Source of the DNA: Bacilli bacterium
GTDB lineage: Bacteria > Bacillota_I > Bacilli_A > RF39 > UBA660
DNA length: 64,000 bases
Reading direction: 5' to 3'
Assembly: GCA_017511375.1 (NCBI GenBank)
Contig: JAFWKJ010000011.1
Coordinates: 4,023 to 68,022, forward strand
Made by a program: the position numbers and the translations under genes. The first letter of the stretch is position 1, and each line of letters opens with the position of its first letter. Shown in pieces: positions 6,997 to 34,635 of this stretch. A model generated the notes under the pieces. The model was given only the letters and a program-made list of their open reading frames with translations, had not been told where the DNA came from and searched no databases.

Positions 6997-7012
6997 CTCC
7001 TAAATATTTAAT

Positions 7013-7044
7013 GCAAAAAAAAGAATCTATCTTATGATAGATTC
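7013..7044 (-). terminator. Intrinsic terminator closing the 27.5 kb Tad/T4SS array
   Basis: Perfect 9-bp inverted repeat GAATCTATC/GATAGATTC (7023-7031 and 7036-7044) immediately after the TAG stop at 7045-7047, followed on the minus strand by T8. Confidence 0.7.
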
Positions 7045-8277
7045 CTACTTAACTGTATATGGATCTGTCTCTGTTCCTTTACCAGAAGCAGACATTACAT
7101 TACTATTTAAATAGATAACAGGACGAACCCTAGAATAAGAACTTGCCCATTCTACCGTAGCAGAACCATCTCGACCTATTTTGAAAACTTTACAAGTTGT
7201 TGAAGAATCAGGTGTCATTAACCACCAATCATCTCCTAAAACCAAATAATTATAATTCATACAAGATTTTGTTTCTGCACTTTTACAATTAGAATCAAGA
7301 CTTGCATATAAATAATCAGATAGTGTTAGTAATCCCAACTTTTGGTTTTGAACTTTTTGACGGCACTCCTCACTATTCGTTTTAGACTGACTCGTCGCAG
7401 TTCTTCCCCCTACACATAACGTATGAGCAACAATTTTAGATCTATCTTTATCAGATAATATTTTTTCTCCCATATCTTCATCAGGATTCACATATATTTT
7501 TTCCATATATTCTTTAATTCTACTTACACTATATTTATTAAGGCCTGCTTCATAAGCCATTTCTTCATTATAACGATCATCCCATGGTTGAGAATATTCA
7601 ATTCCTGTAGAATGAATTAAAACAACATTTCCCTCTGGAGTAATTTTAACAATTCTCCATAAATTTTCTTCTAATTGAACCCAATTATTAACTTGTTCTC
7701 CGCGGAAAACATAATTTCCATTATAACTATATAATCCTTCTCCACTAGAAGTAACTGGATTATCATTTTGTACTTTGGTAGCTAGTGGTACAGAATTATA
7801 GTTCGAACCACAATTCAAGAAAGGTGTATACACATACTCTCCACCAACTTTTTCTACCTGTACTTTTCCTGTACAAGGTTCCCCATCATTTCGATAACTT
7901 GATAAATCATTCATCTTTCCAGCATATACCAAATTAGAAGAATCGATTTCCACAACATCTCCATCATTTTGAGGTAAACTATCAGGATAATCTGCAAAGT
8001 AAGAAATAGCCGCATTTTTCAAAATGTTTTCAATATCTTCATACTCATAGGATCTAGAAGTAAATAAAGAAGCAATGAATAAAATCAATAAGAGAAGAAG
8101 GACTGCCCCTACAATCACACCCATAAGTAGGAACAATCTTTTTTTAGGATCAAGATCTTTACTTATTAAACGTCTTGAAGAAGAATCATCCTCATCGTCA
8201 TCTTCATCTAATTCAATTTCTTCTTCTTCGTATTCCACTTCATCTTTATTTGGTTTTTTTACTATATTACCATTCAT
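7045..8277 (-). CDS. Membrane-anchored surface protein: acidic cytoplasmic N-terminus, one TM, pilin-head-like module, beta-rich C-terminal module
   Basis: N-terminus EYEEEEIELDEDDDEDDSSS, then the TM LFLLMGVIVGAVLLLLLILFIASLF. Next comes an A..Y....P..LP...G...C...V.V......Y.Y..FLNCG module shared with 31139-32947 and the giant pilin. The C-terminal end is ...VRPVIYLN...GKGTETDPYTVK. GGAGG RBS. Confidence 0.6.
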   Translation of the reverse strand: MNGNIVKKPNKDEVEYEEEEIELDEDDDEDDSSSRRLISKDLDPKKRLFLLMGVIVGAVLLLLLILFIASLFTSRSYEYEDIENILKNAAISYFADYPDSLPQNDGDVVEIDSSNLVYAGKMNDLSSYRNDGEPCTGKVQVEKVGGEYVYTPFLNCGSNYNSVPLATKVQNDNPVTSSGEGLYSYNGNYVFRGEQVNNWVQLEENLWRIVKITPEGNVVLIHSTGIEYSQPWDDRYNEEMAYEAGLNKYSVSRIKEYMEKIYVNPDEDMGEKILSDKDRSKIVAHTLCVGGRTATSQSKTNSEECRQKVQNQKLGLLTLSDYLYASLDSNCKSAETKSCMNYNYLVLGDDWWLMTPDSSTTCKVFKIGRDGSATVEWASSYSRVRPVIYLNSNVMSASGKGTETDPYTVK

Positions 8278-8291
8278 ACTTATCCTCCTTT

Positions 8292-10658
8292 CTAATTATC
8301 AAAAAAGTCGTCAAAGAAATCATCATCCTCTTCTTCTGAATCATCATCCAAACTTATATCTACTTCTGGTCTAATATCAGAAAGAGGTTTAATAACAGGA
8401 ACATCTTTCTTTTCTGTCAATTTAATATCAGGTACAATCTTTTCTTCCTTCATAGGAACTGTCTTTGAAATGAAAGGTTCTGAAACAACCGGCTTTTTCT
8501 TTTCTGCCTCTTTGTTCTTCTTTTCTTCTTCTTCTAACTCAGCAATTTTCGCATCAATTTTTCGAACCAATTCATCTACATCAAATCCCAAATCATCCTC
8601 TTCATCATAATCATCATAAACAGGTTTTGACTTGGCCGTAGGAACCTTAGAAACGGTATCTTCTGTAAAAGGATTAAACCCATTTTCTTCTTCCATTTGT
8701 TTTTTGAATTCATCAAAAGAAGGAATACCCGCAGATTCTGTTTTCTTAGAAGGAGAATCTACTCTTTCTCGTTTTAAAAAATCTGGAATTTGTTCTGGAT
8801 TAGGCTGTGCATGTGCCCTTCTATCACGAATTGCTTGTAATTCAGGAGGAAGTTGGTCTGCCATAGGATTCATTCTTGGCATACCATCCATAGCAGAAAA
8901 CTGAGCGTTTTCTCTATCTTTTTCATCTGCTGAATTCATCATTTCTAAAAGTTTCTTTTTTTTCTGATTTTTAACATACTCTTTAATATCAAAAGTATGA
9001 ACTTCTTGTTTTGGTCTAGTTGGATATTTTGCAATAGGATATTTCTTTCCCCAATTCAATTTAAAATAAGGGGTGAATTTTGTTTTAAATGGTTGTTTAC
9101 GCATTCTTAAGATAATAACCTCAAATGGTTTCATTCTTTGTAAATCAGAAACAGTAACTAAAGGGGTTGAAGCAGTCTTATCATCTTTTTTAGATTTGAC
9201 TTCTCCACACATTTTAGAGATTTCTTCGAGTGCCTTTAACTCGGTAGTAATTAAGTAAATAATATTTCCACAGTTACCACGAATCGTCTCTGCAGTTTCT
9301 TTTCCATATACATCATCAAGTTGAGCAAAGTTCTGAATAATCATCGTGAAACGAATATTTCTAGAACGAGCTGCCGTAATCATCGTTGTAACATCTTTTA
9401 ATGGTGGCATATTAGGAAACTCATCCAATAAAAAGTTGGTACGGATTGGTAATTTTCCACCATGTCTTTGGGCTACAGCTATTAAAGTTTCATAGATTTG
9501 TTTTAATAAAATCGTAACTAAAGAGTGATATGTTTTCTTTTCATCCTGAATAACAATAAACACTGCCGTTGGTCTTTCTCCAATACTCTCTAAATTTATA
9601 TCTGAGTGACTTAACATCTCTGATAAATTCTCACGAGATGCAAATAATTTTACTTTTTGTTTAAAAACAGATAAAATACTTCCTTTTGTTTCACTAGGTG
9701 CCATAATCGTACTAGAAGCATTGATACTAGCAGCACTATTAGGATCTTTTCCGGCAAAGTATTCCTTAATATAAGTAGAACCACCAAATTTTTCTTCTCC
9801 TACTGTTGTTGCTAAAGAAATACTATTGATATTAATTTCATTTGGTTTTGCATCTACGAATAACCCTAGGGCAACACCAGAAAAATAATCAGCAGATGTT
9901 TTTTCCCAGAAAGGATCTGCATTTTTATTAGAATCATCATACAAAATATTTAAAGCTAAGTCATCTAATAACTCTATCGCTTTATCATGATTTCCATTTT
10001 TATACATTTGATATGGCAAAGCCATTGGGTTCCAAGCATTACCATTTTGTGGATCACGGAAATTTAATAATAAGATTTGATAGCCTCTGGCTCTAAGCAT
10101 ATTAGAAGTCTTTTCATAAATCTCACCTTTAGGATCGGTTATAATCATAGACTCTCTTGCTTTAGCCAAACTATGAACCATTGGTAAAATTAAACATTGT
10201 GTTTTACCAGAACCAGTAGCACCAATTACTAAAGAATGGTACTCGCCATTATCAACCCACATCTCTTTTTCATTCAAAAGAATAGGTACTCCTGCAGATT
10301 TAGAATTTCTCTGTGTAAGTTCTACACAATCTAACTCTTCTTTAATTTCTTTGTCCTTTGCCCATCTTGAGTAACCTTTATCCTTTTTATCTGTAGTAAT
10401 TCCAAATCCTTTTTCACGATCAAAAAACCAGGAACTTACACTAGCAAAGATTCCCAATAAAGCTAATATATAAAATATAAATGTCGCACTAATAACAGAA
10501 GGATCAAAAGCAGGAATTGGATTTAAACCACTAAGATGCCCTTCCATGGCAAACATATGAATGTTAGCTACCGTAATACAAACAATATAAAACAAGAAGA
10601 TTGCAAACATGATAAATATTAGTAAATCTTCTGGATCTGCACGAAACTTAAACTTCAT
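8292..10658 (-). CDS. virD4: VirD4/TraG-family type IV coupling protein with a disordered acidic C-terminal tail of about 230 aa
   Basis: Two N-terminal TMs. Walker A VIGATGSGKTQCLILP, DPKGEIYE, Walker B FLLDEFPNMPPL, and RSRNIRFTMIIQNFAQLDDVYG. The tail ends DDDSEEEDDDFFDDFFDN. Confidence 0.9.
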   Translation of the reverse strand: MKFKFRADPEDLLIFIMFAIFLFYIVCITVANIHMFAMEGHLSGLNPIPAFDPSVISATFIFYILALLGIFASVSSWFFDREKGFGITTDKKDKGYSRWAKDKEIKEELDCVELTQRNSKSAGVPILLNEKEMWVDNGEYHSLVIGATGSGKTQCLILPMVHSLAKARESMIITDPKGEIYEKTSNMLRARGYQILLLNFRDPQNGNAWNPMALPYQMYKNGNHDKAIELLDDLALNILYDDSNKNADPFWEKTSADYFSGVALGLFVDAKPNEININSISLATTVGEEKFGGSTYIKEYFAGKDPNSAASINASSTIMAPSETKGSILSVFKQKVKLFASRENLSEMLSHSDINLESIGERPTAVFIVIQDEKKTYHSLVTILLKQIYETLIAVAQRHGGKLPIRTNFLLDEFPNMPPLKDVTTMITAARSRNIRFTMIIQNFAQLDDVYGKETAETIRGNCGNIIYLITTELKALEEISKMCGEVKSKKDDKTASTPLVTVSDLQRMKPFEVIILRMRKQPFKTKFTPYFKLNWGKKYPIAKYPTRPKQEVHTFDIKEYVKNQKKKKLLEMMNSADEKDRENAQFSAMDGMPRMNPMADQLPPELQAIRDRRAHAQPNPEQIPDFLKRERVDSPSKKTESAGIPSFDEFKKQMEEENGFNPFTEDTVSKVPTAKSKPVYDDYDEEDDLGFDVDELVRKIDAKIAELEEEEKKNKEAEKKKPVVSEPFISKTVPMKEEKIVPDIKLTEKKDVPVIKPLSDIRPEVDISLDDDSEEEDDDFFDDFFDN

Positions 10659-10713: not shown

Positions 10714-11493
10714 TTACTGATTAGAAATTAGTAAATTAAATCTCTCATCATAAAACTGAAATAACATATCAACTTGATCTGTAGCACTAAATTTTCCACA
10801 ACTTAGTATTACTTCAGAAACTCCATCATAATTTGTATCCACAAACGTATGGTAAAAAGGTTTACAACCATTCAAACCTTTATTAGAACTTACATCCGTA
10901 TAAAGGGGATAAATTACATTATTTTTAACCATAAAAGCAATAGAAAAAGTTGTCTCTGGTTCAAAATCTATTGGTAAGGCATTACTAATAATATAAAAAT
11001 CCTCTTCGATAGAATCTCCATCAAAATCTAAAGAAACTTTGTAAGAAGAAGTAAACTGACTACTGGAACTAATTCCATTTTCGTTTAATACTTCATAGAC
11101 AAAACTATAATCATCAATTTTTGATTCTTGAAAATCAAATACTTTCAAATCAACGTTAGAGTTATAAGCAAATAGTCTACCGCTTAAATTAATTGCTTCT
11201 TTTTTTTCATCAAAAACATACCATTTATCATCATGCCATAAATAATAATCTCCCTTATAATTATTATCTTCAAACACATGAAAAGTCTGCCAACTATAAG
11301 AATCCATAGAAGAAGTATATCTCAAGAAAGACCAATTTTTTTCTCGTAATACCCATGTGGTATTATCTCCCACAATAAAGGTCCCTTCTATGTTTTCTTC
11401 TCTTATATTTGGAATTCCATAGAAAATAAACATAACAATTCCAAATGTTAATAACATGATAAATAATATGATATAAATTTTTTTACTTGGCAT
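10714..11493 (-). CDS. Hypothetical N-terminally anchored extracytoplasmic protein (259 aa)
   Basis: Single N-terminal TM. Contains two D.DGD/D.NYDG-type acidic loops (DFDGDSIEEDF and DTNYDGVSEVIL) reminiscent of FG-GAP/VCBS calcium loops. No family recognised. Confidence 0.5.
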   Translation of the reverse strand: MPSKKIYIILFIMLLTFGIVMFIFYGIPNIREENIEGTFIVGDNTTWVLREKNWSFLRYTSSMDSYSWQTFHVFEDNNYKGDYYLWHDDKWYVFDEKKEAINLSGRLFAYNSNVDLKVFDFQESKIDDYSFVYEVLNENGISSSSQFTSSYKVSLDFDGDSIEEDFYIISNALPIDFEPETTFSIAFMVKNNVIYPLYTDVSSNKGLNGCKPFYHTFVDTNYDGVSEVILSCGKFSATDQVDMLFQFYDERFNLLISNQ

Positions 11494-11501
11494 AATATCA
11501 C

Positions 11502-13994
11502 CTATCCAACCTTATAATATGCAATCGTAGAGGTATTAGCCCAATTATATTGAGCCCACATATCTCTCGAACGAGATGATGGATCCATCATATTAATCGT
11601 AGATCCTGTCACACTATCAATAGCAACCCAGTGTTGTCCTGTATTTCCTTTTACTTCAGCAACAGCATAGACACCTGGTTGGTTTACAATTCCCTTAATC
11701 GTATTTAACTTATCATTTCTACTCATTCCGGAAACATCCACTTTTCCTTGATAGTGGAAAGATGGTGCTGCCTGCGTAGCTACACCCCACTGGAAGTTTC
11801 CACCGGAATCAATTCCTCCATGTTTATTTAAGAATTCTACAAAGGTTCCTGGATTAAATGGATTGATATTAACCGGAACTTGACTCTTTGCAATCAACAT
11901 AGAAACAGAAGTAACCAAACATCCAATTTGTCCTAAAGTACTACTACTTCCTCCCATACGGGTCCCACTCCATTTTGGATCTGTTTGTTTCCAATTAGAA
12001 TATTCTCCTGTAGAAATACAATTATTAGTTTCACTCGTACCACAAGCTGCTTTTACAATATCAGAAGCACCATAATTACGAGATCCACTATTATAGGATT
12101 GTAAAAGAATTTGTTTATAATTTAATCCTTGCCTAGCAAGAGAGGCCCACTTTTTCTGATCGGTATCTACATAGGCAGCACTAATAATATAACCTTGGGC
12201 ATTTACCAAAACTTCTCCCTGCGTTTCGGCAGCAGCTTGTCTAAGAACGTGATTTTGAGGTAAAGCTGCTCTTTGTCTAACAGCTCCTTGCACATTACCA
12301 CTACGAACAATACCACCTTGTCCATCTCCGCCACCCATATAAGAGCAACCCAAATCAATATTACAAAACACTTGATCCGCAACACAAGAAGATATCTGTA
12401 GAATCCATTGTCCGTTTTCTTGAACTAGTTTTTTTCCATTAGCATTTCCCATAGCTGTAGGTCTAGAAAGAGCAAAACTTCTAGCTACAACCATTTGTGC
12501 TTTTAATACTTCTTCCGATGCACTTGGACCAACTTCTGCATAAGCGACCCCTGCAACATAATCTTCAAAGTTTACTAAATCCTGATTAATAGGTGTATTA
12601 TAACTACCATTTCCATAAGGCCTTCCACATTCCATTAATCGAACTTTTAGATTACTTATTTGCATGTTTTTAACAACATTTCCTCGACCAGGTAATGAAA
12701 ATCCTTTAATATTATAAGAACAACTTCCAATCGCTGCACAATTAGAACTTGGCATTTCCACTTCAATCAAATCATAATAACGTTCTAGATAATCAAATAC
12801 CTCATCTGTCATGTGTTCATAATATTCTCTTGATTCATGAGGTTTATAATGAGGAAAAATATTCACAGTTAAATTTTCACGAAATGTCTCTTCACTATAA
12901 TAATTATTAGAGAACATGGCATCAGCCCAAATTCGAATATCATCCTCCGTTACATCATCATAACTAATAGAAACATTACTGGATACCAAAGAATGATAAA
13001 TAGCAACAATCTTCATCGCATCAAAAGACTTTCCTTGTTGCTGGAACTCCTTTTGAATATTCGTTATACGTTTTAAAAACCTTTTTTGTTCTTTAGAAGA
13101 AGGATTAAACTCCACTCCTCCTGTTTCTTCTCCTAATTCGTCACTCATACCAAAAGCATCATCATAATCATCAAAGATACTTGTAACCGTCGTGACAAGA
13201 GCTAAAAGCAATAGAATAACTATAAAGAAAGGAGTAACTGAAATAATAATTGCCACAACAGATTTTCTAAAGAAAAAACTTCCAAAACCTTTACTCCTAT
13301 ATTCCTCTGAACTTTCAGTACTTGTTCCTTCACTAGAAGAAGGAGAACTCTCTTGTTCTCCTTTTCTCAATCTATTAGAGCCTGGTGCTTTGGACATTCC
13401 TCCAGTCGCATCCCCGCCTCCTGTAGATAAATTTTCTTTTGCTTTTTGAGGTCCTGCACCTGCTGCTATATTCGATACATTATCTCCTGTATTAGATGCA
13501 TTTCCTGTTTTTGGCATACTGCCTGTATTGAGAGCACCACCTGGTTTCGCAGCTTCTCCCGCTTTTCCAGCAGCACCACCTGTTTTTCCCGCAGCGTCTC
13601 CTGGCTTCGAAGCTCCCCCACCAGAGAAACTACTTTTAAGGGAAGCAGCCTTACCAATTTTATCTCCTGCACCACTTTCAGCCAATTTATTAGAAGCTCC
13701 TTGAACCGCTTTTCCAGCAGGATTCATCTTATTGGCTCTCGTCATGGCTTTTCCAAGCATTTGAGTACTTTTACCACCTGTTAATTTATCGGCAGCTTTT
13801 ACCCCCGCACCAATTGCTGCAGCAACAGGATGTTTAGAAGCCATGGCAACATCAGCGGCATTATTAATTGTATTAGCATTGTTTCTTGTATTGCGGTCAT
13901 CTTGCGCTTTTCTCTGCTCAGAATAATTCTGAGAAGCATCATAATCATCTTCCTTGTTACCGCGCCTTGCTTGATATGCCACCAACACCACCAC
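11502..13994 (-). CDS. Bifunctional cell-wall hydrolase (SpoIID-like lytic transglycosylase plus papain-like Cys peptidase); functional VirB1 analogue
   Basis: Gly/Ala/Lys-rich N-terminal region of about 230 aa, then a TM (VVAIIISVTPFFIVILLLLALV). SpoIID/LytB signature YVAGVAYAEVGPSASEEVLKAQMVVARSFAL. C-terminal Cys/His/Asp set: TLGQIGCLVTSVSM ... GQHWVAID ... MMDP. The start is ambiguous among GTG/TTG codons at 13985-13994. Confidence 0.75.
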   Translation of the reverse strand: MVVLVAYQARRGNKEDDYDASQNYSEQRKAQDDRNTRNNANTINNAADVAMASKHPVAAAIGAGVKAADKLTGGKSTQMLGKAMTRANKMNPAGKAVQGASNKLAESGAGDKIGKAASLKSSFSGGGASKPGDAAGKTGGAAGKAGEAAKPGGALNTGSMPKTGNASNTGDNVSNIAAGAGPQKAKENLSTGGGDATGGMSKAPGSNRLRKGEQESSPSSSEGTSTESSEEYRSKGFGSFFFRKSVVAIIISVTPFFIVILLLLALVTTVTSIFDDYDDAFGMSDELGEETGGVEFNPSSKEQKRFLKRITNIQKEFQQQGKSFDAMKIVAIYHSLVSSNVSISYDDVTEDDIRIWADAMFSNNYYSEETFRENLTVNIFPHYKPHESREYYEHMTDEVFDYLERYYDLIEVEMPSSNCAAIGSCSYNIKGFSLPGRGNVVKNMQISNLKVRLMECGRPYGNGSYNTPINQDLVNFEDYVAGVAYAEVGPSASEEVLKAQMVVARSFALSRPTAMGNANGKKLVQENGQWILQISSCVADQVFCNIDLGCSYMGGGDGQGGIVRSGNVQGAVRQRAALPQNHVLRQAAAETQGEVLVNAQGYIISAAYVDTDQKKWASLARQGLNYKQILLQSYNSGSRNYGASDIVKAACGTSETNNCISTGEYSNWKQTDPKWSGTRMGGSSSTLGQIGCLVTSVSMLIAKSQVPVNINPFNPGTFVEFLNKHGGIDSGGNFQWGVATQAAPSFHYQGKVDVSGMSRNDKLNTIKGIVNQPGVYAVAEVKGNTGQHWVAIDSVTGSTINMMDPSSRSRDMWAQYNWANTSTIAYYKVG

Positions 13995-15801: not shown

Positions 15802-16361
15802 ACTGGCATCACCGTTCCAAACTCCGTAGTATTTCCCCCATTTAAGAAGTTCTCTAAGATTAATCTTAAATCTGAATTGCTAACCATAGAAGCATTTAAT
15901 CCACAAGTAGCAAGTCCATTAATCATTTGACGAACTCTCTTTTGTGCCATATCAGCATCTTTCGTTTTAAACAAGAAATAATATTCCGTATCTACTACAT
16001 TATTTCGAATAAAGGTTTCTCCTTTATCGATATCTTGTAAGATAAGTTTTCGAATTGCTGGAGAACTTGTTTCATTTAATAGTAATTGCATTTGAGACAT
16101 ATAAACAGATATATCTACGGGTCTATCCGCAACTACTAACCAGAATTCAAAATCGATTGTGTTATAAAAGTTTCGTAACGCAATCAAAATATTATTTTGT
16201 AAATCAGGATCTAAAATAAAGATATTACGTGGAGTAATCTTAACTCCCGTTACTTTATTATGATCTTTTGTAATAATCATATTATTTTGGATAGCTCTAA
16301 CAGGTAACCAATCTTCTGTAAATCCACTACCCGCGTCTCTTACGTTTTTTGATGACGACAT
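15798..16361 (-). CDS. VirB4-family N-terminal domain encoded as a separate ORF
   Basis: 187 aa. The pattern DWLPVRAIQNNMIITKDHNKVTGVKITPRNIFILDPDLQNNILIALRNFYNTIDFEFWLVV matches the usual N-terminal domain of Gram-positive VirB4 homologues (ConE/PrgJ/TcpF type). It ends in TGA within an ATGA overlap with the ATPase ORF. Confidence 0.65.
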   Translation of the reverse strand: MSSSKNVRDAGSGFTEDWLPVRAIQNNMIITKDHNKVTGVKITPRNIFILDPDLQNNILIALRNFYNTIDFEFWLVVADRPVDISVYMSQMQLLLNETSSPAIRKLILQDIDKGETFIRNNVVDTEYYFLFKTKDADMAQKRVRQMINGLATCGLNASMVSNSDLRLILENFLNGGNTTEFGTVMPV

Positions 16362-26354: not shown

Positions 26355-26864
26355 TTATACTTCGGCCTCAAGGTCATACAATTTAAGTAGACTCTTGCAC
26401 TCTGTAGAATTCTTATCTTTTAAACCAACTTCAGTTCTTACATCTGATATATAATTGGTCTCTAGAATCGCATCATAGGTAGTAGTAATAACAGCATGTT
26501 CATTCTCTCCTCCACCATCTGTAGCATCAAAACTTAAAGTCGTTAATGAATCTACTTTAACGCTAACCTTAGGTGGTAACTCATTGATATCATAAAAACC
26601 TATTTTATAACTTCTTGTCTCATCTACGTTGGAAGCGAATCGATAAAGAAAGCTTTCAACAAACTTTTCTTTATCGATACGATATAAACCACACGTTGTT
26701 CTAAACATTGGATCAATAGCATCCTGTAAAGAAGCATCTGTAGTCTCTTTTAGCAAATAGTAATCCAATTCACTACCAGTTGCAACATTGTTAATAACAT
26801 TCAACAAATTTAATGCAATCAAAGCAAGTAAAATAATTCCAACAATTAAAATTCCTTTGTTCAT
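26355..26864 (-). CDS. Hypothetical N-terminally anchored protein (169 aa), pilus-associated by context
   Basis: MNKGILIVGIILLALIALNLL anchor. GGAGG RBS. No recognisable family. Confidence 0.45.
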   Translation of the reverse strand: MNKGILIVGIILLALIALNLLNVINNVATGSELDYYLLKETTDASLQDAIDPMFRTTCGLYRIDKEKFVESFLYRFASNVDETRSYKIGFYDINELPPKVSVKVDSLTTLSFDATDGGGENEHAVITTTYDAILETNYISDVRTEVGLKDKNSTECKSLLKLYDLEAEV

Positions 26865-26881: not shown

Positions 26882-29800
26882 CTAACCACCGTGAACAGCA
26901 GTATCACAACTATCGCTGCTGTAATTTACCATGTTATTACATTGAACGGCCTTACTCTTCGGATTAGGTGCTTTAACCTGATCAAAGTAACTTCCACGAA
27001 TGACATCACTTGAATATCTAGAAATACCATTCCTATCAATATAGAAGTTTTTGTCATCGAAATCTCCGTAAGATCCAAACTGATTACCTCTATTTCGTAA
27101 TGCTCTTAATCCTTTAGCACCTATAATAAACTGATAATCAAGTTTATCATTATCGTAATATTTTGTTCCTTTATTCTTTGCCTCTTGTTGTACAGCATCA
27201 AGATATTTTTCAGGGTTACTTAGATATCCACTACCTGGATCATCAGGATTAGCATAACGATCGGCATCAACAGTAGCTTCCTTTGTCCAGTTAAATCCAG
27301 CTACCCTACTTTCACCACTTGTTGAACTACCTTCTTTTTTAGGCCCTTCCCCAGAACCAGGGAACATATTTTCAAGGTCAACCGTACGAATGTCATATTC
27401 ATCACCACATGGCCTTGGAACCTTTGTATCTTCATCTTCCCTCTTGTAGGAAGGAGCCGTATTGATTGCATAGAAGCAATCAACATCTATATTCCATCCA
27501 AAGTATCCAAAATCTCTTGTCTCCGCATGAATATTCCATGTGTTAACACTAGATGGATAATATTTAGTAATTGTCGTAGTTGTATCTTGCCTTATACATT
27601 CATTCAATTCATTTGTAGTAGATGTAACAGTAATACCTTCTTGTTTAATATATCTATTAAAGTACTGGTTCCACCACTCAACATTAACTGCTCCTGAGTT
27701 AAGAGGAACACAGTATTTATCCTTAATCTCAACCCATGCCTTTCCACTCTTACCACTTGGATCATATGACAATTCTGCCGTCTTCTTATTTCTCCAAGAT
27801 CCTGGGAATCCCCAAGTAGAACGATATAAGTCTGCAGATGAATCGCCTTCTTTATAACAACCTAATCTTCCTTGTCCTTCACTAGGATAATCTGAGAAGA
27901 TAGTTGTCTTGGCATCAGCAAATGTACCAACAACAGAAGTACCACTTGTATGTTGAATCGTATCTTGTCCATTATATGGGAATTTATACCAGTTAATAGT
28001 TTCTGAATTCTTTGCTCTATAACCAGCACTAATTGTGTATGTAGATTGTGTTGTACTACACTTAGCATGTCCTTCGCATTCTTCGATTGCCTTATCTCGT
28101 TGTCTCATATTAATAATTAAATCCATTTGCGCGTATCCATCATTATAATAAATTGTTCCAGCAGTTGTATTATTTTGTCCCCCATCAGGTATGATATTAC
28201 CATCAGAATCCTTTCTTGGTGTTAAGGATGAAAGTGTACCTAAAGTAGCCTCAGACCTACAATCATTCCACCAACAATTATCATCACAATATCCATTTGG
28301 GAACTCATCAAGATTAGAGTATACATGTCTCCAGAATCCATCTTGTATTCCTGCAGGCAAGATATATTTTCCATTATGATACTTACCATCTGGATTATGT
28401 GTATACCATCTACCTTCAATACCTTTACATTTTGTTTTACAATCAGAATAACCACTACATCCGCAATCAGCAGTACGTGATGTTGTATCTCGAACACCAA
28501 ACCATTCTATACCTTTACTTGTTTTAAAATAACAACCTAAATGTTCTTCATTTGGATCATCATATTCGTCCCCAACACAAACACATTTTGCAAGCTCATC
28601 AGTAACTCCAGGATACTTACCTTGTACTTTGCTCATACAGTCACGCATATCGTCATCACTCATAATTGTAGTCCTTTTTGAAAGTTTATCAGCAGCCAAT
28701 TCCAAAAGCTCTGCATTGATTTGTGCACCTGCTACAGCATTAGAACCATACACTTCTTTATAACACTTTTGAGAACACTTTTTAGAATAAGCACCTCCAT
28801 CACAAGTATTAATACAGCTATCGTATTCATCACTTGGACCACCTTGACGCCATGATCTTCCATATCCATAACACTCTGGAACAGGATCACAATAACGACA
28901 ACTTGCGCTTCCATCTTTTATAACTTTAGATTCTTCAATATTGGTCTGTTCTCCAGTACCAGTTTCGGTAGAAGTACCTTCCACAACTTCATGAGTGGTT
29001 TTATCCACATATCCCGTTTCAATGTGGATTCTTGAACTCTTAGTATATGGATACGGCAAAGCTGGAGGTTGCTGCATTTCACAATTGACACGGCTAGTAA
29101 CACGTACTTTATATTCAAAGCATGCGCCCGCTTTTGTTGCAATAGGAGGTCCATATTCAACCTCAACCGCTTCTGAACATTTCATAACGCATGAAATAGT
29201 AGCACCATCTTTTGCAGGTTGCCCTTGATCAACATTGTATTGATATTTACCTTTGTTAATTACAAAAGTGTGTTCTGCATATAATTGTTGATTATTAGTA
29301 AAATAAGCATCCCCTTTAGCCGTTTCCATACTACCAACACTTGGCAATACTTTATCCCCTAAAGAAGAATCACCAAGACTGTAATTACACTTAAATGTGT
29401 TAATAGTTGAATCAGATAACGTTCCGCTTGCGCCAATTTCTGAATCTTTATAAACTACTTTTTCTTCTTCATTACTAACTGTATCAACACTAGAGCACTT
29501 AGTTGGATCCGTACAAGTAGTTGGATCGGTTGTTGAAATCTTAACCCAAGAAGAAACACGCTCTGTTTTTGAATTCTCATGTTGATAAGCAGCAGATTTT
29601 ACTCTACAAAACTCTCTTGCAAATCCTTCAGGCATATCTTCCCATTTCTCAGACTCACAATCTATTTTTTTAGTACTACTTGCTCCTGTAGCTGTAGAAG
29701 CGACAGTAGGACAGTCCTTTGTTTCATAGTATTCCTTAGCTTGTCCTTTAGATGATTCAAGTCTAATTTTAATAGAATCATAATAACAAGGATGTTGATT

Positions 29801-30319
29801 ACCATCTTCAAGCAAATTTAGATTCAAGCCAACATCTTCAGCTCGTAAAATAACCGTTATACCTGTTAATCCAGTTGGAGTGTCTTCATCAGTAATACCT
29901 TCAGAAAGTACAACAGAACTATGATCACAAGATAATATATGATCATCCGAATTATCATACTTTACTTTATTAACTTTTAATATTTGAAAAGTTTGTTTGC
30001 AATACTTCGAGTCAGGATCTTTTACTTGCATCGTAACCACAAATTGTCCAGACGCATTTCTTTCCAACTGCAAATCATATTTATTTTCTATGACCTGAGT
30101 AATATTGGGCAACTCAACATCTGAAGGTTTTGGACACTTACACTTTTTTGTCTCTGCATCGCAGGTGCTTTTCGTTCCACAAGAGTCTTCTGCCTCTGGA
30201 TCTTTTTGGTCTGGATTACACTTTTTTGCCGCAAAAACAGATGTTGTTGGAACAAACAAGAAAGCAAGCACTAATAAAACAAATACAACCCCATATATTT
30301 TTTTATTCTTCATTTTCAT
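26882..30319 (-). CDS. Very large secreted Cys-rich protein (1145 aa), candidate tip or adhesin component
   Basis: Sec signal peptide ending SVFA/AKK. About 45 Cys by my hand count. No C-terminal sorting signal and no TM besides the signal peptide. Confidence 0.7.
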   Translation of the reverse strand: MKMKNKKIYGVVFVLLVLAFLFVPTTSVFAAKKCNPDQKDPEAEDSCGTKSTCDAETKKCKCPKPSDVELPNITQVIENKYDLQLERNASGQFVVTMQVKDPDSKYCKQTFQILKVNKVKYDNSDDHILSCDHSSVVLSEGITDEDTPTGLTGITVILRAEDVGLNLNLLEDGNQHPCYYDSIKIRLESSKGQAKEYYETKDCPTVASTATGASSTKKIDCESEKWEDMPEGFAREFCRVKSAAYQHENSKTERVSSWVKISTTDPTTCTDPTKCSSVDTVSNEEEKVVYKDSEIGASGTLSDSTINTFKCNYSLGDSSLGDKVLPSVGSMETAKGDAYFTNNQQLYAEHTFVINKGKYQYNVDQGQPAKDGATISCVMKCSEAVEVEYGPPIATKAGACFEYKVRVTSRVNCEMQQPPALPYPYTKSSRIHIETGYVDKTTHEVVEGTSTETGTGEQTNIEESKVIKDGSASCRYCDPVPECYGYGRSWRQGGPSDEYDSCINTCDGGAYSKKCSQKCYKEVYGSNAVAGAQINAELLELAADKLSKRTTIMSDDDMRDCMSKVQGKYPGVTDELAKCVCVGDEYDDPNEEHLGCYFKTSKGIEWFGVRDTTSRTADCGCSGYSDCKTKCKGIEGRWYTHNPDGKYHNGKYILPAGIQDGFWRHVYSNLDEFPNGYCDDNCWWNDCRSEATLGTLSSLTPRKDSDGNIIPDGGQNNTTAGTIYYNDGYAQMDLIINMRQRDKAIEECEGHAKCSTTQSTYTISAGYRAKNSETINWYKFPYNGQDTIQHTSGTSVVGTFADAKTTIFSDYPSEGQGRLGCYKEGDSSADLYRSTWGFPGSWRNKKTAELSYDPSGKSGKAWVEIKDKYCVPLNSGAVNVEWWNQYFNRYIKQEGITVTSTTNELNECIRQDTTTTITKYYPSSVNTWNIHAETRDFGYFGWNIDVDCFYAINTAPSYKREDEDTKVPRPCGDEYDIRTVDLENMFPGSGEGPKKEGSSTSGESRVAGFNWTKEATVDADRYANPDDPGSGYLSNPEKYLDAVQQEAKNKGTKYYDNDKLDYQFIIGAKGLRALRNRGNQFGSYGDFDDKNFYIDRNGISRYSSDVIRGSYFDQVKAPNPKSKAVQCNNMVNYSSDSCDTAVHGG

Positions 30320-31124
30320 CAGCTCCTTTCAACCTTTCGGCAATTTTTTCATAATTTTTATTTCTATATACCTTAGCCAATTTAACTGGTTCCTCGTCTC
30401 CTACCAAACGACCAGTAACAATCAAATCATAACTTTTTCCATCTCCAAAGAATCTAGAACATGTCACAACAGATAATATCTTGTCATCTTTCTTATATTT
30501 TGTTGAAAAGTCATAAATTGTTTCTTCCATAATTCTTTCTATATAAGAATTGGTAGCAGTTTGACTCCAATTTCCATGAGGATAATTATCTAAGTCTTTA
30601 TAATACATAAAGTTTACTGCAAATACTTGATATAGATAATCTTTTCCATCAATAGATAATTGAATGAATTGATTTTCCTTAGCAAAATCATAGTACACAA
30701 AATTCATCAACTCTTCCATTCGAACGAAATCATCACCATGTGCTTCAGGAGGAGCACCCAAATTCATCACGTTGTGTCCATACACAAGCATTGTACTATG
30801 AAATTCACTATCTAAGTTTAATGACCATAAGTAGGACTTGGTAACAGGATAATCATATCCAGTACTCAACAAACCATACAACGGATAGTCAATGTTAGTT
30901 CCTTGAACCCTAACCCATCCAATGGTTTCAAAATCCTTTCCATCACTCTTTTTTGATTTTTCAATATTCTCTTTTCTTGATACAACCTTATAATCACCAC
31001 TATAACCAAACATTTGAAAAATCATCAAAATGCCCAGCAATAGCATCAATGCAACTAATGATGCAATCAATATGACGTTGTATCGTTTGAGTTTCATACT
31101 CAATTTCTTTTTTCTACCACTCAT
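30303..31124 (-). CDS. Sortase-family (class B-like) transpeptidase
   Basis: N-terminal TM. IGWVRVQGTNIDYPLY, VYGHNV (catalytic His), ILSVVTCSRF (TxC catalytic Cys) and a downstream Arg (IVTGRL). Its 3' end overlaps the next ORF by 17 nt. Confidence 0.65.
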   Translation of the reverse strand: MSGRKKKLSMKLKRYNVILIASLVALMLLLGILMIFQMFGYSGDYKVVSRKENIEKSKKSDGKDFETIGWVRVQGTNIDYPLYGLLSTGYDYPVTKSYLWSLNLDSEFHSTMLVYGHNVMNLGAPPEAHGDDFVRMEELMNFVYYDFAKENQFIQLSIDGKDYLYQVFAVNFMYYKDLDNYPHGNWSQTATNSYIERIMEETIYDFSTKYKKDDKILSVVTCSRFFGDGKSYDLIVTGRLVGDEEPVKLAKVYRNKNYEKIAERLKGADENEE

Positions 31125-31138: not shown

Positions 31139-32947
31139 CTATTTCAATTTATAAGGGGAATCAGCCGTACCAGAACCATTACTAATAACAGTTCCTTTTT
31201 TAATATAAGCAACGGCTCTAACACCAGCGGTTGTATAATTTGGAAATGGCGTTTCATTTATTGGAGTACCTAAATTAGTAATCGCCCCACCAACTCTTTT
31301 CTTACTAGTTGAAGAATTAATAACCCAATATGATTGCATATCTCCATATCTCACTAATGTTTGTGCACTAAACATGTCATACATATTAGGCGGAGATAAT
31401 TTTACTTTATAAGTATTCGTTTTCTTTTCTTCTCCGTAAGTAATCTTGCCACTATACACAGGAGCTTTCACTTCATGTGCTACAAAGTAAGAAGTATCAA
31501 TATATTGACTAGCTTTATTATTGATATAATATCCATAATTTTCTTTATCTTTAGGATCGTAAATAAATGTTGCACTATTTGGATTAGAATATGTTTGAGG
31601 TTTATCTTGTCTATTTCCAATTGTTTCAACGGAAATCACTTTTGTCGTTCCATCCTCAAGCGTATCAATAATTCTCCAAGGCGTTCCACCAATAACAACA
31701 TATTCTCCGATATAGCGTTCGTTTAATAAGGTTCCACCTTTAGCTTTCTTTGTCTCACCAAATACATATGGATTTTCTAAAGAACCATCCCCATCTGTTA
31801 CCAAAGCATCCCCACGAATCACAATCTTAGGACGAATTCCATAATTTGAATTCACACTGTAAGACAAGAAATCTTTACCCGCTTGATTATAGAAGAAAGA
31901 CACCCTTGTAACATATGCTTTATTATCACTTTCACTATTTCCAACCCAAGAAATAGTACGTGGTTTCATATAATTAAAACCATTCCCTTGCGCTCTATTA
32001 ACATCAATGACAGAAGGAATATAAGCATATCTTTTATCTGTATAAGAAGTACATTGTGTTGTATTTAAATCTTGCTTATCAATTCTCATATTACAAAACT
32101 TGCTTTCTACAAGCATTTTCTTTGCTTCCTCTGTAAAACTTGGAATATAGACTTCATCTAACCATTTTTCTATTTTTGTAAAATTAACATTATCAACATC
32201 TTCTTCTGCTACTAAAATGACATTATCTTTTTCATCAAGTCCAAAGATTCTAAAATACATATAAGAAAGACGAACATAATTATTGCTAGCATCTCCTACA
32301 TAATTTTTAATCTCTTTCAAATCATTTTTGACGATACCACTTAAAACTTTAATAACGTTAACCGTTCTAGTAACCGTTGTCTTATTTCCAAATCCATCAG
32401 AAATAGAATAAGTAATTTCATAAGATCCCACTTTATTTGTGTCAACTTCTCCTTTAATGGTTACATCTTTAGGATCTAATTTTCCATCTTTATCATCCAC
32501 AACACTACTAACACCAGGTTCTTTATATTTTTCCCCATAGTTAACAGTCATTTCCTCTTTTCCATTTAATTTGATTTGAGGTCCTTTATGATCAACTTGA
32601 GAAGTTATCAAACCACAGTCTAGATAAACATAATACCTATACGCACCATTTTCACGTCTAACTTTTACCCAACTTTTTTCTAAAGAACATAGTTTTTTAG
32701 AGTTAGGAACCTTAAAATCTTCTTTCAAATAAGATTGCTTATATAACGTGTTTAAAGAAAGAGTTTTGACTCTTTCTCCTGTAGGTAATTTATCTGGATT
32801 TAACTCATAGTAACGTCTAGCAGCATCTTCTAACACTTGTTCATTATGTCTAAAAGTTAGCATAGGAGAAATCACTAAGAACCATACAAACAAGCCAACA
32901 ATCGCAAGTACAACAATAATTTTAATACCGCCATATTTCTTTTGCAT
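31139..32947 (-). CDS. Membrane-anchored surface protein: pilin-head-like module, Ig-like domain and two beta-rich modules
   Basis: N-terminal MQKKYGGIKIIVVLAIVGLFVWFLVI. Pilin-head motif ARRYYELNPDKLPTGERVK...C...SWVKV...YRYYVYLDCG. Ig-like segment GPQIKLNGKEEMTVNYGEKYKEPGVSSVVDDKDG...ISDGFGNKTTVTRTVNV. Two modules end GDGSLENPYVFGE and GSGTADSPYKLK. Confidence 0.6.
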   Translation of the reverse strand: MQKKYGGIKIIVVLAIVGLFVWFLVISPMLTFRHNEQVLEDAARRYYELNPDKLPTGERVKTLSLNTLYKQSYLKEDFKVPNSKKLCSLEKSWVKVRRENGAYRYYVYLDCGLITSQVDHKGPQIKLNGKEEMTVNYGEKYKEPGVSSVVDDKDGKLDPKDVTIKGEVDTNKVGSYEITYSISDGFGNKTTVTRTVNVIKVLSGIVKNDLKEIKNYVGDASNNYVRLSYMYFRIFGLDEKDNVILVAEEDVDNVNFTKIEKWLDEVYIPSFTEEAKKMLVESKFCNMRIDKQDLNTTQCTSYTDKRYAYIPSVIDVNRAQGNGFNYMKPRTISWVGNSESDNKAYVTRVSFFYNQAGKDFLSYSVNSNYGIRPKIVIRGDALVTDGDGSLENPYVFGETKKAKGGTLLNERYIGEYVVIGGTPWRIIDTLEDGTTKVISVETIGNRQDKPQTYSNPNSATFIYDPKDKENYGYYINNKASQYIDTSYFVAHEVKAPVYSGKITYGEEKKTNTYKVKLSPPNMYDMFSAQTLVRYGDMQSYWVINSSTSKKRVGGAITNLGTPINETPFPNYTTAGVRAVAYIKKGTVISNGSGTADSPYKLK

Positions 32948-32955: not shown

Positions 32956-34509
32956 CTATGATAGTTTATAACTATAATCTTTATTACGAACCGTAATCTC
33001 TAAACGTATATTTTTATTTTGATCAAAATCCTCTGGAACCTTTAAGTAAATCGTCTTTCCAAAATAAGATCTTGTAACAGCAAATTTGATATCCAAAGAC
33101 TTCTCTTTACCATTACTATCTTTATAATTAATTCTACCATACTTCGATAAAAAGTCAATCATGTTTTTGGCTTCATAAGACTCTGAAGAGAAGACAATTT
33201 CCATGACTTTATAGTTCTTTGGAGCAATATAAGTATGGTCTTGCAATTCACACCCTTCAGAAGTACATTTATTGATTTTATAATCAATAGATTTACTATA
33301 ATGAACCTCTTCTATACTAATAGAATCCTCTTTCCCATATAGAGGAACATCAAAATACTCTCCTAATTTTAATTTTTTTGTCTTTTCAACCTTTCGTATA
33401 TCTTTAATCTTAAGTTTAATTTTTCTTAATTTAAAAATGCCACCCTTTTCCTGAAAATACAAAACAAATTTTCCTTTTCGTATTTTTTTATTAACTTTAT
33501 AAATCAAAATGAAAGTACCTTCTTCATCTCTTTTCATCTCTTTCACTTTACTATAGCATTTTCCTAAATCCTCAAATTCTTTCGCATACGTTGTCTCAGT
33601 TGTCTCATAAACTCTAGAACCTGCATGCAAATGGAAATTATTAATATTAAGATTCCTTGGGGCACTACTATTTTTAACAGAAACTTCCACAATTACAAAA
33701 TTACTATCTTTGGAAATAACTTCTCCTTTAACATCCTTATCCGTATAATACGAATTAGTAACTTTAAAGACATACCCATTAGCTTTATAAGTTTGTCCTT
33801 GTTTATAGGTCCTATTCGTAACAAAAATAAAGACATACGAATTATATAAGAACATAACAATCAGAACACCAATAATCGTTTTACTAATAATCTTATGTTC
33901 ATTATAAAAGTATCCAATATTACGAATCAGTTTTTTCCATATACGTTTAACTGTATTAAAATCAAAATCAATACTAATTTCAATTTCTTCTCGATCTTCT
34001 TCACTTAAATCAAGCATCTCTAAATCAGAATTAAAATCAAACTTTTTAATATCTAATCCAAAAATACGCATGACATAAACTCCCAAAGCAGGAAGTTGTC
34101 CCAACATAACCATCAATAATAAGTCTCTAGCAAAACGCAAATCTGTTGGATCTATCGTTTCTTTATAATCAGCAAAGAAACTTCTAATCATGCTTAATAT
34201 TAAAAATAAAGCAACATAAGTAATGGTAGGAATCAAATAAGTCTTCCAAGGTTTCTTTTTATGTAATAACAAGAACAATAAAGAAGCACTTCCTACAATC
34301 ATAAAGAAAGCGCAAAACATAACCAAAGAAGAAATATGTTTAGAGACAGGGTTTGCATATAAATCATAAATACCTTCACGCATATATGTATTAACAAACC
34401 TAGAAATATCAATCGTTCTATATATTAAGAACAAACCAACTATCAATAATGCAATATGTATCTTACGAAAGTTCTTAATCAAGAACGCATAAGGCTTACG
34501 TATAATCAT
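32956..34509 (-). CDS. Polytopic membrane protein with a C-terminal extracytoplasmic beta-sandwich (DUF4352-like) region; first gene of the array
   Basis: Start set to the ATG at 34509, about 10 nt after an AGGGGAG RBS. About 5 TMs in the N-terminal region. Later segment YVFKVTNSYYTDKDVKGEVISKDSNFVIVEVSVKNSS. Confidence 0.55.
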   Translation of the reverse strand: MIIRKPYAFLIKNFRKIHIALLIVGLFLIYRTIDISRFVNTYMREGIYDLYANPVSKHISSLVMFCAFFMIVGSASLLFLLLHKKKPWKTYLIPTITYVALFLILSMIRSFFADYKETIDPTDLRFARDLLLMVMLGQLPALGVYVMRIFGLDIKKFDFNSDLEMLDLSEEDREEIEISIDFDFNTVKRIWKKLIRNIGYFYNEHKIISKTIIGVLIVMFLYNSYVFIFVTNRTYKQGQTYKANGYVFKVTNSYYTDKDVKGEVISKDSNFVIVEVSVKNSSAPRNLNINNFHLHAGSRVYETTETTYAKEFEDLGKCYSKVKEMKRDEEGTFILIYKVNKKIRKGKFVLYFQEKGGIFKLRKIKLKIKDIRKVEKTKKLKLGEYFDVPLYGKEDSISIEEVHYSKSIDYKINKCTSEGCELQDHTYIAPKNYKVMEIVFSSESYEAKNMIDFLSKYGRINYKDSNGKEKSLDIKFAVTRSYFGKTIYLKVPEDFDQNKNIRLEITVRNKDYSYKLS

Positions 34510-34577
34510 AAAGTACACACTCCCCTATTATCATCATATTCAGTATACCTTATTTAGGAAAAAATAGGAAGAGAAAA

Positions 34578-34606
34578 TAAAAAAATGATAGAAGTTTTTC
34601 TATCAT
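34578..34606 (-). terminator. Second of two tandem terminators downstream of greA
   Basis: Perfect 9-bp inverted repeat ATGATAGAA/TTCTATCAT (34585-34593 and 34598-34606), followed on the minus strand by a T run. Confidence 0.55.
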
Positions 34607-34609
34607 TTA

Positions 34610-34635
34610 TAAAACAAAAAAGCACGTAAGTGCTT
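34610..34635 (-). terminator. greA intrinsic terminator (overlaps the stop codon)
   Basis: On the minus strand, AAGCAC-TTAC-GTGCTT is followed by TTTTTGTTTT. Confidence 0.6.

Follow-up and report, generated by a model that had tools for sequence, protein, structure and literature searches.

Does a type IV secretion system (T4SS) that lies among core genes, with no relaxase, integrase or replication gene beside it, still serve a mobile element, or has it become part of the cell? This question is raised by an array of 23 genes in a 64,000-nucleotide (nt) stretch of contig JAFWKJ010000011.1 (assembly GCA_017511375.1) from a member of the Bacilli of the order RF39. In the following, this whole stretch is referred to as the window. 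An earlier note, made from the sequence alone, had described the array as T4SS-like and possibly domesticated. On the evidence presented here it is reasonably probable that the array is a fixed, vertically inherited descendant of the Bacillota three-ATPase conjugation apparatus, which RF39 would have kept as a core organelle for contact-dependent exchange of macromolecules and not for self-transfer. Three ATPases are predicted: a VirD4 coupling protein, a VirB4 that is split in two genes, and one of VirB11/TadA type that goes with a Tad-like pilus module.

Setting, mobility genes and inheritance of the array

The 23 open reading frames (ORFs), a 49-amino acid (aa) pilin gene at 21866-22015 included, run in one direction on the minus strand and occupy 27.5 kb from 34518 down to 7045, which agrees with the coordinates and gene count of the earlier note. 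Neighbouring ORFs overlap or are less than 100 nt apart. Pfam scans of every window ORF of at least 80 aa returned the flanking genes that had been named on both sides. These were greA, yrzL (IreB), ruvX, yrzB (DUF1292), mltG (YceG), trmR and two U32 peptidase genes beyond the start of the array, and the genes for a rhodanese and a VTT protein, rmuC and trpS on the opposite flank. The impression of a composition shared with the neighbours also proved correct. The whole window is AT-rich (about 30% GC) with nearly all genes on the minus strand, and GC contents are 0.28-0.38 within the array, where a few genes are slightly richer, and 0.27-0.33 outside, with no break in skew. The designation as T4SS-like was accurate in that T4SS genes are present, but about half of the array is a Tad/type-IV-pilus-like module together with a sortase and surface proteins.

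In none of the window ORFs did the Pfam scans detect a relaxase, a Rep_trans protein, a tyrosine or serine recombinase, a DDE transposase or a replication initiator; the sizeable ORFs outside the array were assigned to housekeeping or accessory roles. The relaxase search covered the window and neighbourhoods of about 20 kb in related genomes. Tblastn queries with the MobP3 relaxase of the Bacillus cereus-group plasmid pBMB67, IS21 and Tn3 proteins, and the serine recombinase, Toprim protein and single-stranded DNA-binding protein (SSB) of an integrative and conjugative element (ICE) of Thomasclavelia ramosa gave nothing at E<=1e-3 in the window and 167 related loci (2.5 Mb). Relaxase, SSB, primase and anti-restriction genes were absent from the neighbourhood of VirD4 in all of the more than 70 loci. 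A search for direct repeats bracketing the array yielded only imperfect matches at chance level. Reading of the source contig was extended by about 6 kb on the left of the window and about 9 kb on its right, and no relaxase, integrase or other mobility gene was encountered there. The absences reported in the earlier note, of relaxase, recombinase, transposase and replication genes in the array and the 64 kb and of flanking direct repeats, are thereby borne out. A relaxase or integrase with attachment (att) repeats just outside the window, which would have spoken for a classical ICE, did not turn up in the 6-9 kb beyond its ends.

Nor was a relaxase fold found in an unassigned ORF, the other finding that would have contradicted the note. 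In a hydrophobicity scan, membrane segments were missing only from VirB4, the VirB4 N-domain protein, TadA and g11 (gene designations as in Table 1). Thus, a cryptic relaxase could hide only in g11, because this is the only soluble protein without assignment. No sequence family matched g11, including in a PDB profile search. Its AlphaFold2 model (predicted local distance difference test, pLDDT, of 80) resembled ParA, MinD, HypB, FlhG and BcsQ in a Foldseek comparison with the PDB, with 11 matches at E<=1e-3 (best 3.4e-7, most 2e-4 to 9e-4; MinD and FlhG at about 1e-3 to 6e-3). A relaxase hidden among the unassigned ORFs was rejected, since the model is that of a ParA/MinD-class NTPase and not of a HUH, Rep_trans or other relaxase fold.

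Metagenomes from gut and rumen contain thousands of VirB4 homologues with identities of 88-96%, and a relative is encoded in at least 577 GTDB species representatives, which are uncultured gut Bacilli of the order RF39. From these relatives the 80 best VirB4 loci, 83-97% identical, were kept for comparison. They are titled "uncultured Bacilli/Tenericutes/Erysipelotrichaceae", "Mycoplasma sp. CAG:877", Ca. Faecimonas or Ca. Onthousia, and Ca. Faecimonas equals the GTDB genus CAG-877 of the order RF39 (PMC8035907). The 80 loci agree essentially without variation in gene order from CpaB to the last gene, and rhodanese-VTT-rmuC-trpS follows the array in most of them, as in the window. The T4SS and Tad-like halves are adjacent and colinear in all loci reaching far enough. 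At the other end, in 80 metagenome loci recovered via greA, the order ruvX-mltG-trmR-U32-U32-HD-greA leads directly into the first array genes, and g22 adjoins greA in 62 of 80 loci, many of the remaining ones being short contigs. The head of the array is rearranged to greA-g19-g18-g22-g21-g20 in the metagenome loci L138, L157 and L161. Strains without the array but with an intact greA-rhodanese junction, for which the earlier note had proposed to look, were not found among the relatives examined; locus L160 has the order greA-tig-lon, which does not represent an empty site but another arrangement.

Median identity amounts to 87% for VirB4, compared to 80% for the adjacent rmuC and 78% for trpS, and the pairwise divergence of VirB4, VirD4 and TadB correlates with that of rmuC (Pearson r 0.62-0.69). 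Ratios of non-synonymous to synonymous substitution (dN/dS), which are rough values as dS is near saturation, were 0.02-0.16 for motors and platform proteins (VirB4 0.04; g14 and g15 0.02-0.07), 0.05-0.11 for rmuC, and 0.2-0.6 for exposed or surface parts. All array genes are under purifying selection. No pseudogenes were seen, and the Walker motifs are intact in every orthologue (Walker A and B in 81 of 81 for VirB4, 71 of 71 for VirD4, and 72 of 72 for g16). In a library of representatives at 50% identity, the RF39 VirB4s fall into one cluster, with the next relatives at 45%, 40% and 36%. Because of the conservation, the divergence correlated with rmuC, the intact motifs, the low dN/dS and the single VirB4 cluster, the array is best read as a vertically inherited core system and not as an ICE. 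As far as sequences can tell, it fails every tested hallmark of a self-transmissible element: a relaxase, an integrase, att site or replicon, and a patchy distribution. The idea of a domesticated, non-self-transmissible T4SS among core genes is thus strengthened by fixed junctions, presence in at least 577 species and purifying selection. The functions that the note had named as options, DNA import or export, protein delivery, or help in trans for mobilised elements, are weighed below. In the literature on T4SS, pili, conjugation or epibiont life in RF39 we found no paper describing this system, and the RF39 genomics paper mentions neither conjugation nor pili nor VirB.

The closest named VirB4 (33% identity) belongs to the T. 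ramosa element, which encodes sortase-dependent pilins, an SSB, a VirB6-small-VirB4N-VirB4C-hydrolase block, a Toprim protein and a terminal serine recombinase. Altogether, Thomasclavelia, Solobacterium and a Mycoplasmatota plasmid harbour the nearest named relatives of this VirB4, and the best plasmid matches (29% identity) are located on B. thuringiensis plasmids. The first module of pBMB67 has the order MobP3 relaxase-VirD4(CD1115)-hypothetical protein-TrbL-PrgI-VirB4N-VirB4C; further on follows DUF5411-like-SAF-AAA ATPase-T2SSE ATPase-two membrane proteins-small ORF-DUF4320. Nine RF39 array families are homologous to positional counterparts in this plasmid. The same three ATPases are found in the related B. 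cereus-group plasmids pAW63 and pHT73, which are experimentally conjugative (PMC9673590). On account of this homology the RF39 locus seems to be the transfer apparatus of a pBMB67/T. ramosa-type element minus the parts for DNA processing, integration and replication. Since both halves also co-occur in the tra region of pBMB67-type plasmids, the linkage of T4SS and Tad-like genes is presumably older than the domestication and has been kept since. A VirB4 relative of 40% identity (P0285, GCA_016648615.1), accompanied by a gene for a TraC-like N-domain, adjoins relA/spoT, a uvrD-type helicase gene and a NUDIX gene; on this contig no hydrolase or VirD4 gene was found downstream of it. This may be another chromosomal, non-ICE setting.

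Components of the array

The genes of the array are listed in Table 1 in the direction of their orientation, beginning at greA.

Table 1. Array genes and upstream boundary with window positions and assignments (TM, transmembrane)
Feature	Position	Strand	Assignment
Upstream boundary	34519-34635	-	greA terminator-like hairpin (34635-34620) and 115-nt AT-rich leader before g22
g22	32956-34518	-	520-aa polytopic membrane protein, 5 predicted TM segments, extracellular DUF4352-like domain; first array gene
g21	31139-32947	-	Membrane-anchored surface protein; Pfam Bact_surface_Ig-like 1.7e-22; DUF6273 0.0046 (under cut-off)
g20	30303-31124	-	Sortase, class B-like; Pfam Sortase 1.1e-5 (just under cut-off); NCBIfam srtB 1.5e-8
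g19	26882-30319	-	1145-aa secreted protein with 45 Cys and a signal/TM segment; no Pfam match
g18	26355-26864	-	DUF5411 protein with N-terminal hydrophobic helix; Pfam DUF5411 3e-41
g17	25524-26336	-	CpaB/RcpC-like, SAF domain
g16	23819-25492	-	Secretion ATPase of VirB11/TadA/CpaF type; Pfam T2SSE 2.5e-27
g15 and g14	22902-23804; 22099-22902	-	Pair of polytopic membrane proteins, presumably TadB/TadC-like platform proteins
g13b	21866-22015	-	49-aa Flp-like pilin; N-terminus MKAATGELNLTVIT nearly invariant across species
g13 and g12	21414-21848; 20878-21381	-	Paralogous; short MR(D/E)AxGG leader, hydrophobic helix, NVNYTKAFRVKN motif
g11	19786-20844	-	352-aa TadZ/CpaE-like protein; N-terminal flavodoxin/receiver-like domain, ParA/MinD-type domain with degenerate Walker A
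g10 and g09	19401-19739; 18860-19315	-	Paralogous two-TM hairpin proteins, T4SS_pilin (VirB2-like) family
g08	16683-18845	-	VirB6/TrbL-like polytopic channel protein with long C-terminal extension
g07	16327-16668	-	113-aa small membrane protein, PrgI/VirB3-like
g06 and g05	15798-16361; 14011-15801	-	VirB4 split in two genes: N-terminal domain and ATPase
g04	11502-13994	-	830-aa membrane-anchored cell-wall hydrolase; Pfam SpoIID 7.7e-11 (SpoIID/LytB domain)
g03	10714-11493	-	Membrane-anchored (N-terminal TM helix), all-beta ectodomain, invariant DxDxDG..E motif
g02	8292-10658	-	VirD4-type coupling protein (type IV coupling protein, T4CP), 2 TM segments
g01	7045-8277	-	Membrane-anchored DUF6273 surface protein, last array gene; Pfam DUF6273 25.9 bits (cut-off 23.5)

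In the T4SS half, Pfam PF18895 was matched by 22 out of 29 members of the g09/g10 family (best 9.3e-7). The alignment shows a conserved Cys before the first and another after the second helix in nearly all species; one may speculate that this pair forms a disulfide mimicking the head-to-tail cyclisation of VirB2/TrbC pilins. The channel protein g08 has six predicted TM segments and matches Pfam PF19597 TrbL_4 (3.4e-9, 36.9 bits, cut-off 27) as well as, weakly, the NCBIfam models pLS20_p028, MMCAP2_0566 and Mbov_0396. No Pfam or NCBIfam model matched g07 directly. Its family profile matches the ORF of pBMB67 annotated as PrgI (4.2e-5), with which it shares the position in the order TrbL-PrgI-VirB4N-VirB4C. 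The ATPase g05 combines AAA_10 and a TraG P-loop and matches PDB 4AG5 (7.4e-54) and TIGR00929 (7e-22). The best NCBIfam model for VirB4 is NF045975, the ATPase of mycoplasma ICEs, which aligns with g05 at positions 295-891 (1.3e-107) and with g06 at 102-276; the score of 360.6 bits lies under the equivalog cut-off of 590. Splitting of VirB4 is also present in pBMB67 and the T. ramosa ICE.

By its predicted domain the wall hydrolase g04 is a functional analogue of VirB1. In a deep RF39 branch (L066, 11769-16714) Peptidase_M23 and NlpC/P60 proteins replace the SpoIID-type hydrolase between VirB4 and VirD4. The AlphaFold2 model of g03 has a pLDDT of 91; neither a family match, also when profiles were compared with PDB sequences, nor a significant match in a fold search of the PDB (best E 0.066) was obtained. 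This protein was considered as the missing VirB8 and rejected, the confident model being all-beta with no PDB match at E<0.06. The coupling protein g02 matches Pfam T4SS-DNA_transf (7.6e-57), TraG-D_C (1e-24) and TrwB_AAD_bind (2.5e-24), reaches 300.7 bits with NCBIfam NF045973 conju_CD1115 (cut-off 250), and ends in an acidic, low-complexity tail of about 270 aa. With VirB4, VirD4, VirB6/TrbL and a wall hydrolase, the predicted gene content amounts to the monoderm T4SS core, VirB8 excepted.

In the half that carries the Tad-like module, the sortase and most surface proteins, Pfam DUF4352 was found in g22 under the cut-off (4.8e-5). The motifs of the sortase g20 were read from the sequence as His (YGHNV), Cys (VVTCS) and Arg (TGRLV); a C-terminal sortase sorting signal was not recognisable in the sequences of the array proteins. 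The fastest-evolving component is g19 (median identity 29%), a candidate adhesin or tip protein. Always directly upstream of the CpaB/SAF gene lies g18, and the DUF5411-like ORF of pBMB67 takes the same position (8.9e-6). The CpaB-like g17 scored 24.9 bits with Pfam SAF (cut-off 21), 25.3 bits with RcpC (under 28.8) and 1.4e-10 with TIGR03177, and is homologous to the SAF protein of pBMB67 (2.3e-35). For g16 the matches to TIGR02788 VirB11 (2.9e-33) and to TIGR03819 conjugal TadA (3.2e-29) are similar, both under the equivalog cut-offs. Its C-terminal 190 aa or so form a low-complexity tail rich in Pro, Ala, Val and Gln, and orthologue lengths range from 365 to 598 aa.

Pfam and PDB profile searches gave no T2SSF or other match for g14 and g15. 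These two proteins are weak mutual paralogues (hhalign E 6e-5), have the position and topology of a platform pair, and g15 and g14 have homologues in the two ORFs that follow the T2SSE ATPase gene of pBMB67 (3.4e-13 and 2.7e-12). The small pilin g13b occurs in 67 loci with a median identity of 73% and a conserved N-terminus MKAATGELNL; it has no family match and no Flp motif (G/XXXXEY-type signal). Judging from position and N-terminal signature, g13 and g12, which have no family match, are presumably minor-pilin-like. The ATPase, CpaB and TadZ components make the predicted module Tad-like; a recognisable Flp motif and a prepilin peptidase are lacking. Both g01 and g21 end in G-x-G-T-x-x-x-P-Y-x-x-K, of which g21 also carries an internal copy.

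Promoter and terminator scans were at chance level overall, and only sites in intergenic gaps are reported. A terminator-like hairpin follows the last array gene (7046-7021). A perfect TTGACA-18-TATAAT on the minus strand (19782-19753) lies in the 46-nt gap between g11 and g10, at the transition from the Tad-like to the T4SS half, and may be an internal promoter.

Elsewhere in the window, a Fic/DOC protein (61361-62017), which is not a relaxase, showed a sub-threshold match of a helical hairpin to Relaxase_C (21.4 bits, cut-off 30). The window start cuts off an ORF (1-2620, minus strand) of more than 874 aa whose N-terminus bears the type IV prepilin signal KKGFTLVELLATIAILGV. On the source contig (L165, 1-8791) its length is 1584 aa, and after it come a 138-aa ORF and then a second N_methyl protein, which has more than 1844 aa. 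These giant pilin-like proteins adjoin trpS and continue past the left window end, and beyond the right end transporter, RsgI-like and methylase genes were found. About 5-9 kb past the right window end (L168, 1-4800), N6_Mtase, T5orf172 and large unannotated ORFs look like a defence or restriction-type island.

Proposed function and rival explanations

In the proposed mechanism the locus would have lost, or never kept, relaxase, origin of transfer (oriT), integrase and replication functions. The wall hydrolase would open the peptidoglycan, and VirB6, the VirB3-like protein and VirB4 would constitute membrane channel and motor. Surface filaments would be built by the two VirB2-like pilins and the Tad-like module with TadA, the platform pair, CpaB, the TadZ-like protein, the Flp-like pilin and the minor pilins. 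The sortase and the fast-evolving surface proteins g19, g21 and g01 would contact a partner cell, and VirD4 would feed a cytoplasmic substrate into the channel. The cargo might be proteins or nucleoprotein exported through VirD4, and acquisition of resources would also be possible. That the parts assemble as one machine, what the cargo is and in which direction it moves, and which cell is the partner are matters that we infer. A working envelope-spanning contact machine is suggested by the retention of a hydrolase, a channel, two motor ATPases, a coupling protein, two kinds of pilins and fast-evolving surface proteins, and the strong conservation of VirD4 argues for delivery of a cytoplasmic substrate.

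RF39 bacteria are abundant in human and animal guts, have never been cultured and are without fatty-acid, amino-acid and vitamin synthesis; they have been described as a highly auxotrophic uncultured lineage (PMC6784871). Because no DNA-metabolism gene accompanies VirD4, the system is fixed and under housekeeping-like constraint, and RF39 is auxotrophic and uncultured, we favour a role towards neighbouring cells over DNA exchange. As a tentative and rather doubtful extension, RF39 may need a hybrid T4SS/Tad organelle to attach to, feed from or inject other gut bacteria or host cells, in which case the organelle would be essential and convergent with that of epibiotic Patescibacteria.

Several observations weigh against an organelle for contact-dependent exchange that is fixed throughout RF39. 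The greA and rhodanese junctions are fixed only in the subclade of the window. On a deeper RF39 branch, represented by the complete metagenome-assembled genome OZ006970.1 (L066), the array is kept with pncA/pncB downstream instead of g01 and the rhodanese gene, and greA of L160 adjoins tig-lon. A VirB8-like (NTF2-fold) protein was not identified in the array, where g03 is the only positional candidate, and a prepilin peptidase (TadV, A24) is absent from the array and the window. The TadB/C and Flp assignments are putative, being based on position, topology and homology to unannotated plasmid genes, and those of the minor pilins and the VirB3-like protein are likewise putative, with position, topology and weak profile matches as their basis. 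A relaxase could be encoded elsewhere in RF39 genomes, outside the neighbourhoods of about 20 kb. DNA stays a plausible cargo because VirD4 falls in the CD1115 family, which is known from DNA conjugation, and the attachment of RF39 to other cells is a supposition.

The array could instead be a DNA-transfer machine for chromosomal exchange between RF39 cells or for mobilising small elements, with a relaxase encoded elsewhere or none required. In favour of this, VirD4 belongs fully to the conjugative CD1115 family, no model fits VirB4 better than that of the mycoplasma ICE ATPase (1.3e-107), and VirB6 matches mycoplasma and pLS20 conjugation proteins. A precedent comes from mycoplasmas, in which chromosomal DNA is transferred through a minimal pore of ICE-encoded VirD4, VirB4 and VirB6 (PMC12857230), and RF39 is a clade that neighbours the Mycoplasmatales (10.1101/2020.01.21.914887). 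However, relaxase, SSB, primase and anti-restriction genes, the usual companions, are missing beside VirD4 in more than 70 loci, the NF045975 score of 360 is far under the family cut-off of 590, and order-wide fixation with housekeeping-level constraint would be unusual, though possible, for a gene-exchange device. We therefore take DNA transfer seriously as a somewhat unlikely function. Uptake of DNA in the manner of ComB or Ced/Ted, providing nucleotides or repair templates, would suit a relaxase-less T4SS derivative in an auxotroph (PMC6784871) and is hinted at by weak NCBIfam similarities of VirB4 to CedD (6.4e-12) and of VirD4 to CedB (1.1e-3). These scores are far under the cut-offs, no ComEA, ComEC or DprA-type gene is present in the array, and the analogous T4SS of Saccharibacteria is essential independently of ComEC-dependent competence (PMC12857230). 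ComB/Ced-type import, which we consider very unlikely, fits the data least well, given that VirD4 is present and highly conserved.

Two independent neighbours, a Tad-type adhesive pilus with sortase-anchored adhesins for attachment to host or mucus and a separate T4SS, would be compatible with the sigma-70 consensus in the g11/g10 gap, which could give the T4SS half its own transcript, and with the relative in T. ramosa that has the T4SS core without a Tad module. Yet the halves stay adjacent and colinear in all loci reaching far enough and are likewise combined in the tra region of pBMB67-type plasmids, and this division appears quite unlikely to us. The same gene content, derived as it is from conjugative elements, might belong to a classical or decaying ICE that has its relaxase, integrase and att sites beyond the window. 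In dozens of species, however, both junctions are fixed; bracketing repeats are absent, and no mobility genes occur in the 6-9 kb or so beyond the window. Pseudogenes were not seen, motifs are intact, dN/dS is 0.02-0.6 and conservation exceeds that of neighbouring housekeeping genes. Such an ICE is largely refuted already and hardly credible. The contact-dependent core organelle is thus our preferred interpretation.

Comparison with known systems

The ComB system of Helicobacter and the archaeal Ced/Ted systems share with RF39 that they are relaxase-less T4SS derivatives serving the cell and not an element. The ComB and Ced DNA-import systems are not known to possess a VirD4 coupling protein; in contrast, a strongly conserved VirD4 is retained in RF39. 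The similarity to the Ced models is marginal, with 44.9 bits for VirB4-CedD (cut-off 600) and 17.7 bits for VirD4-CedB (cut-off 700).

Mycoplasma ICEs (CDS5/VirD4, CDS17/VirB4 and CDS16/VirB6) provide the best VirB4 model and weak VirB6 matches, and they also reside in genome-reduced Bacilli. They use a DDE recombinase and are mobile, whereas the RF39 locus is not and has a wall hydrolase, pilins and a Tad-like module. A relaxase is not among the five VirB/VirD4-type genes listed for mycoplasma ICEs, and a wall hydrolase is lacking (PMC12857230). In the T. ramosa ICE, VirB6 (about 700 aa), a small membrane protein, VirB4N, VirB4C and the wall hydrolase are arranged as in RF39, likewise with sortase-dependent surface proteins upstream. 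Unlike RF39, it carries SSB, the Toprim protein and the terminal serine recombinase, and has no Tad-like module.

The two-module architecture and the local gene order are shared with B. cereus-group plasmids (pBMB67, pAW63/pXO2-like and pHT73-like; PMC9673590). The common order comprises VirD4(CD1115)...TrbL-PrgI-VirB4N-VirB4C and DUF5411-like-SAF-...-T2SSE-two membrane proteins-small ORF-minor pilin-like. On these plasmids, VirD4 is immediately preceded by the MobP3 relaxase gene, and genes for replication and partition as well as insertion sequence (IS) elements are present, whereas the RF39 version is chromosomal and fixed and has in addition VirB2-like pilins, a sortase and large surface proteins. 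RF39 is also a natural case for asking which role the Tad-like module with the third ATPase plays in Gram-positive conjugation systems.

The nearest conceptual precedent is the T4SS of Patescibacteria, including Saccharibacteria. It is chromosomal, relaxase-less, derived from the MPF_FATA type, equipped with VirB2-like pilins and essential for epibiotic growth (Wang et al. 2023; Quinonero-Coronel et al. 2025, PMC12102498; review PMC12857230). A review of December 2025 called it unique among monoderms in being required for growth and having the potential for conjugative-type pili; almost all known functions of Gram-positive T4SSs are in DNA transfer (PMC12857230). As in RF39, this monoderm MPF_FATA-type system has VirB1-, VirB4-, VirB6- and VirD4-like parts, a VirB3-like part (putative in RF39) and VirB2-like pilins, has no associated relaxase and is near-universal in a genome-reduced auxotrophic lineage. 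By the definition of a Patescibacteria-type system (PMC12102498), the RF39 array was found to be chromosomal, relaxase-less, lineage-wide and provided with VirB2-like pilins. Because both systems are chromosomal, relaxase-less and near-universal in a genome-reduced host, co-option for a non-conjugative role is suggested in both. Domestication in RF39 was probably independent, since the nearest named VirB4 relatives, ranked by identity and not by a tree, are elements of Erysipelotrichaceae and Mycoplasmatota.

RF39 bacteria are highly prevalent in human and livestock guts, and the array provides a handle on their biology: a hypothesis for their resistance to pure culture, a surface structure that could be imaged, and partner cells to be sought. 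A second lineage-wide, relaxase-less and pilin-bearing T4SS in a different phylum would make domestication a recurrent event in genome-reduced dependent bacteria. The two systems differ in several respects. The host is a member of the Bacilli, the locus is fused with a Tad-like module, a sortase and adhesins, and there are two pilin paralogues in RF39 compared to six reported for Southlakia. Furthermore, the RF39 system is known from its genes alone, whereas essentiality and epibiotic growth have been reported for Patescibacteria.

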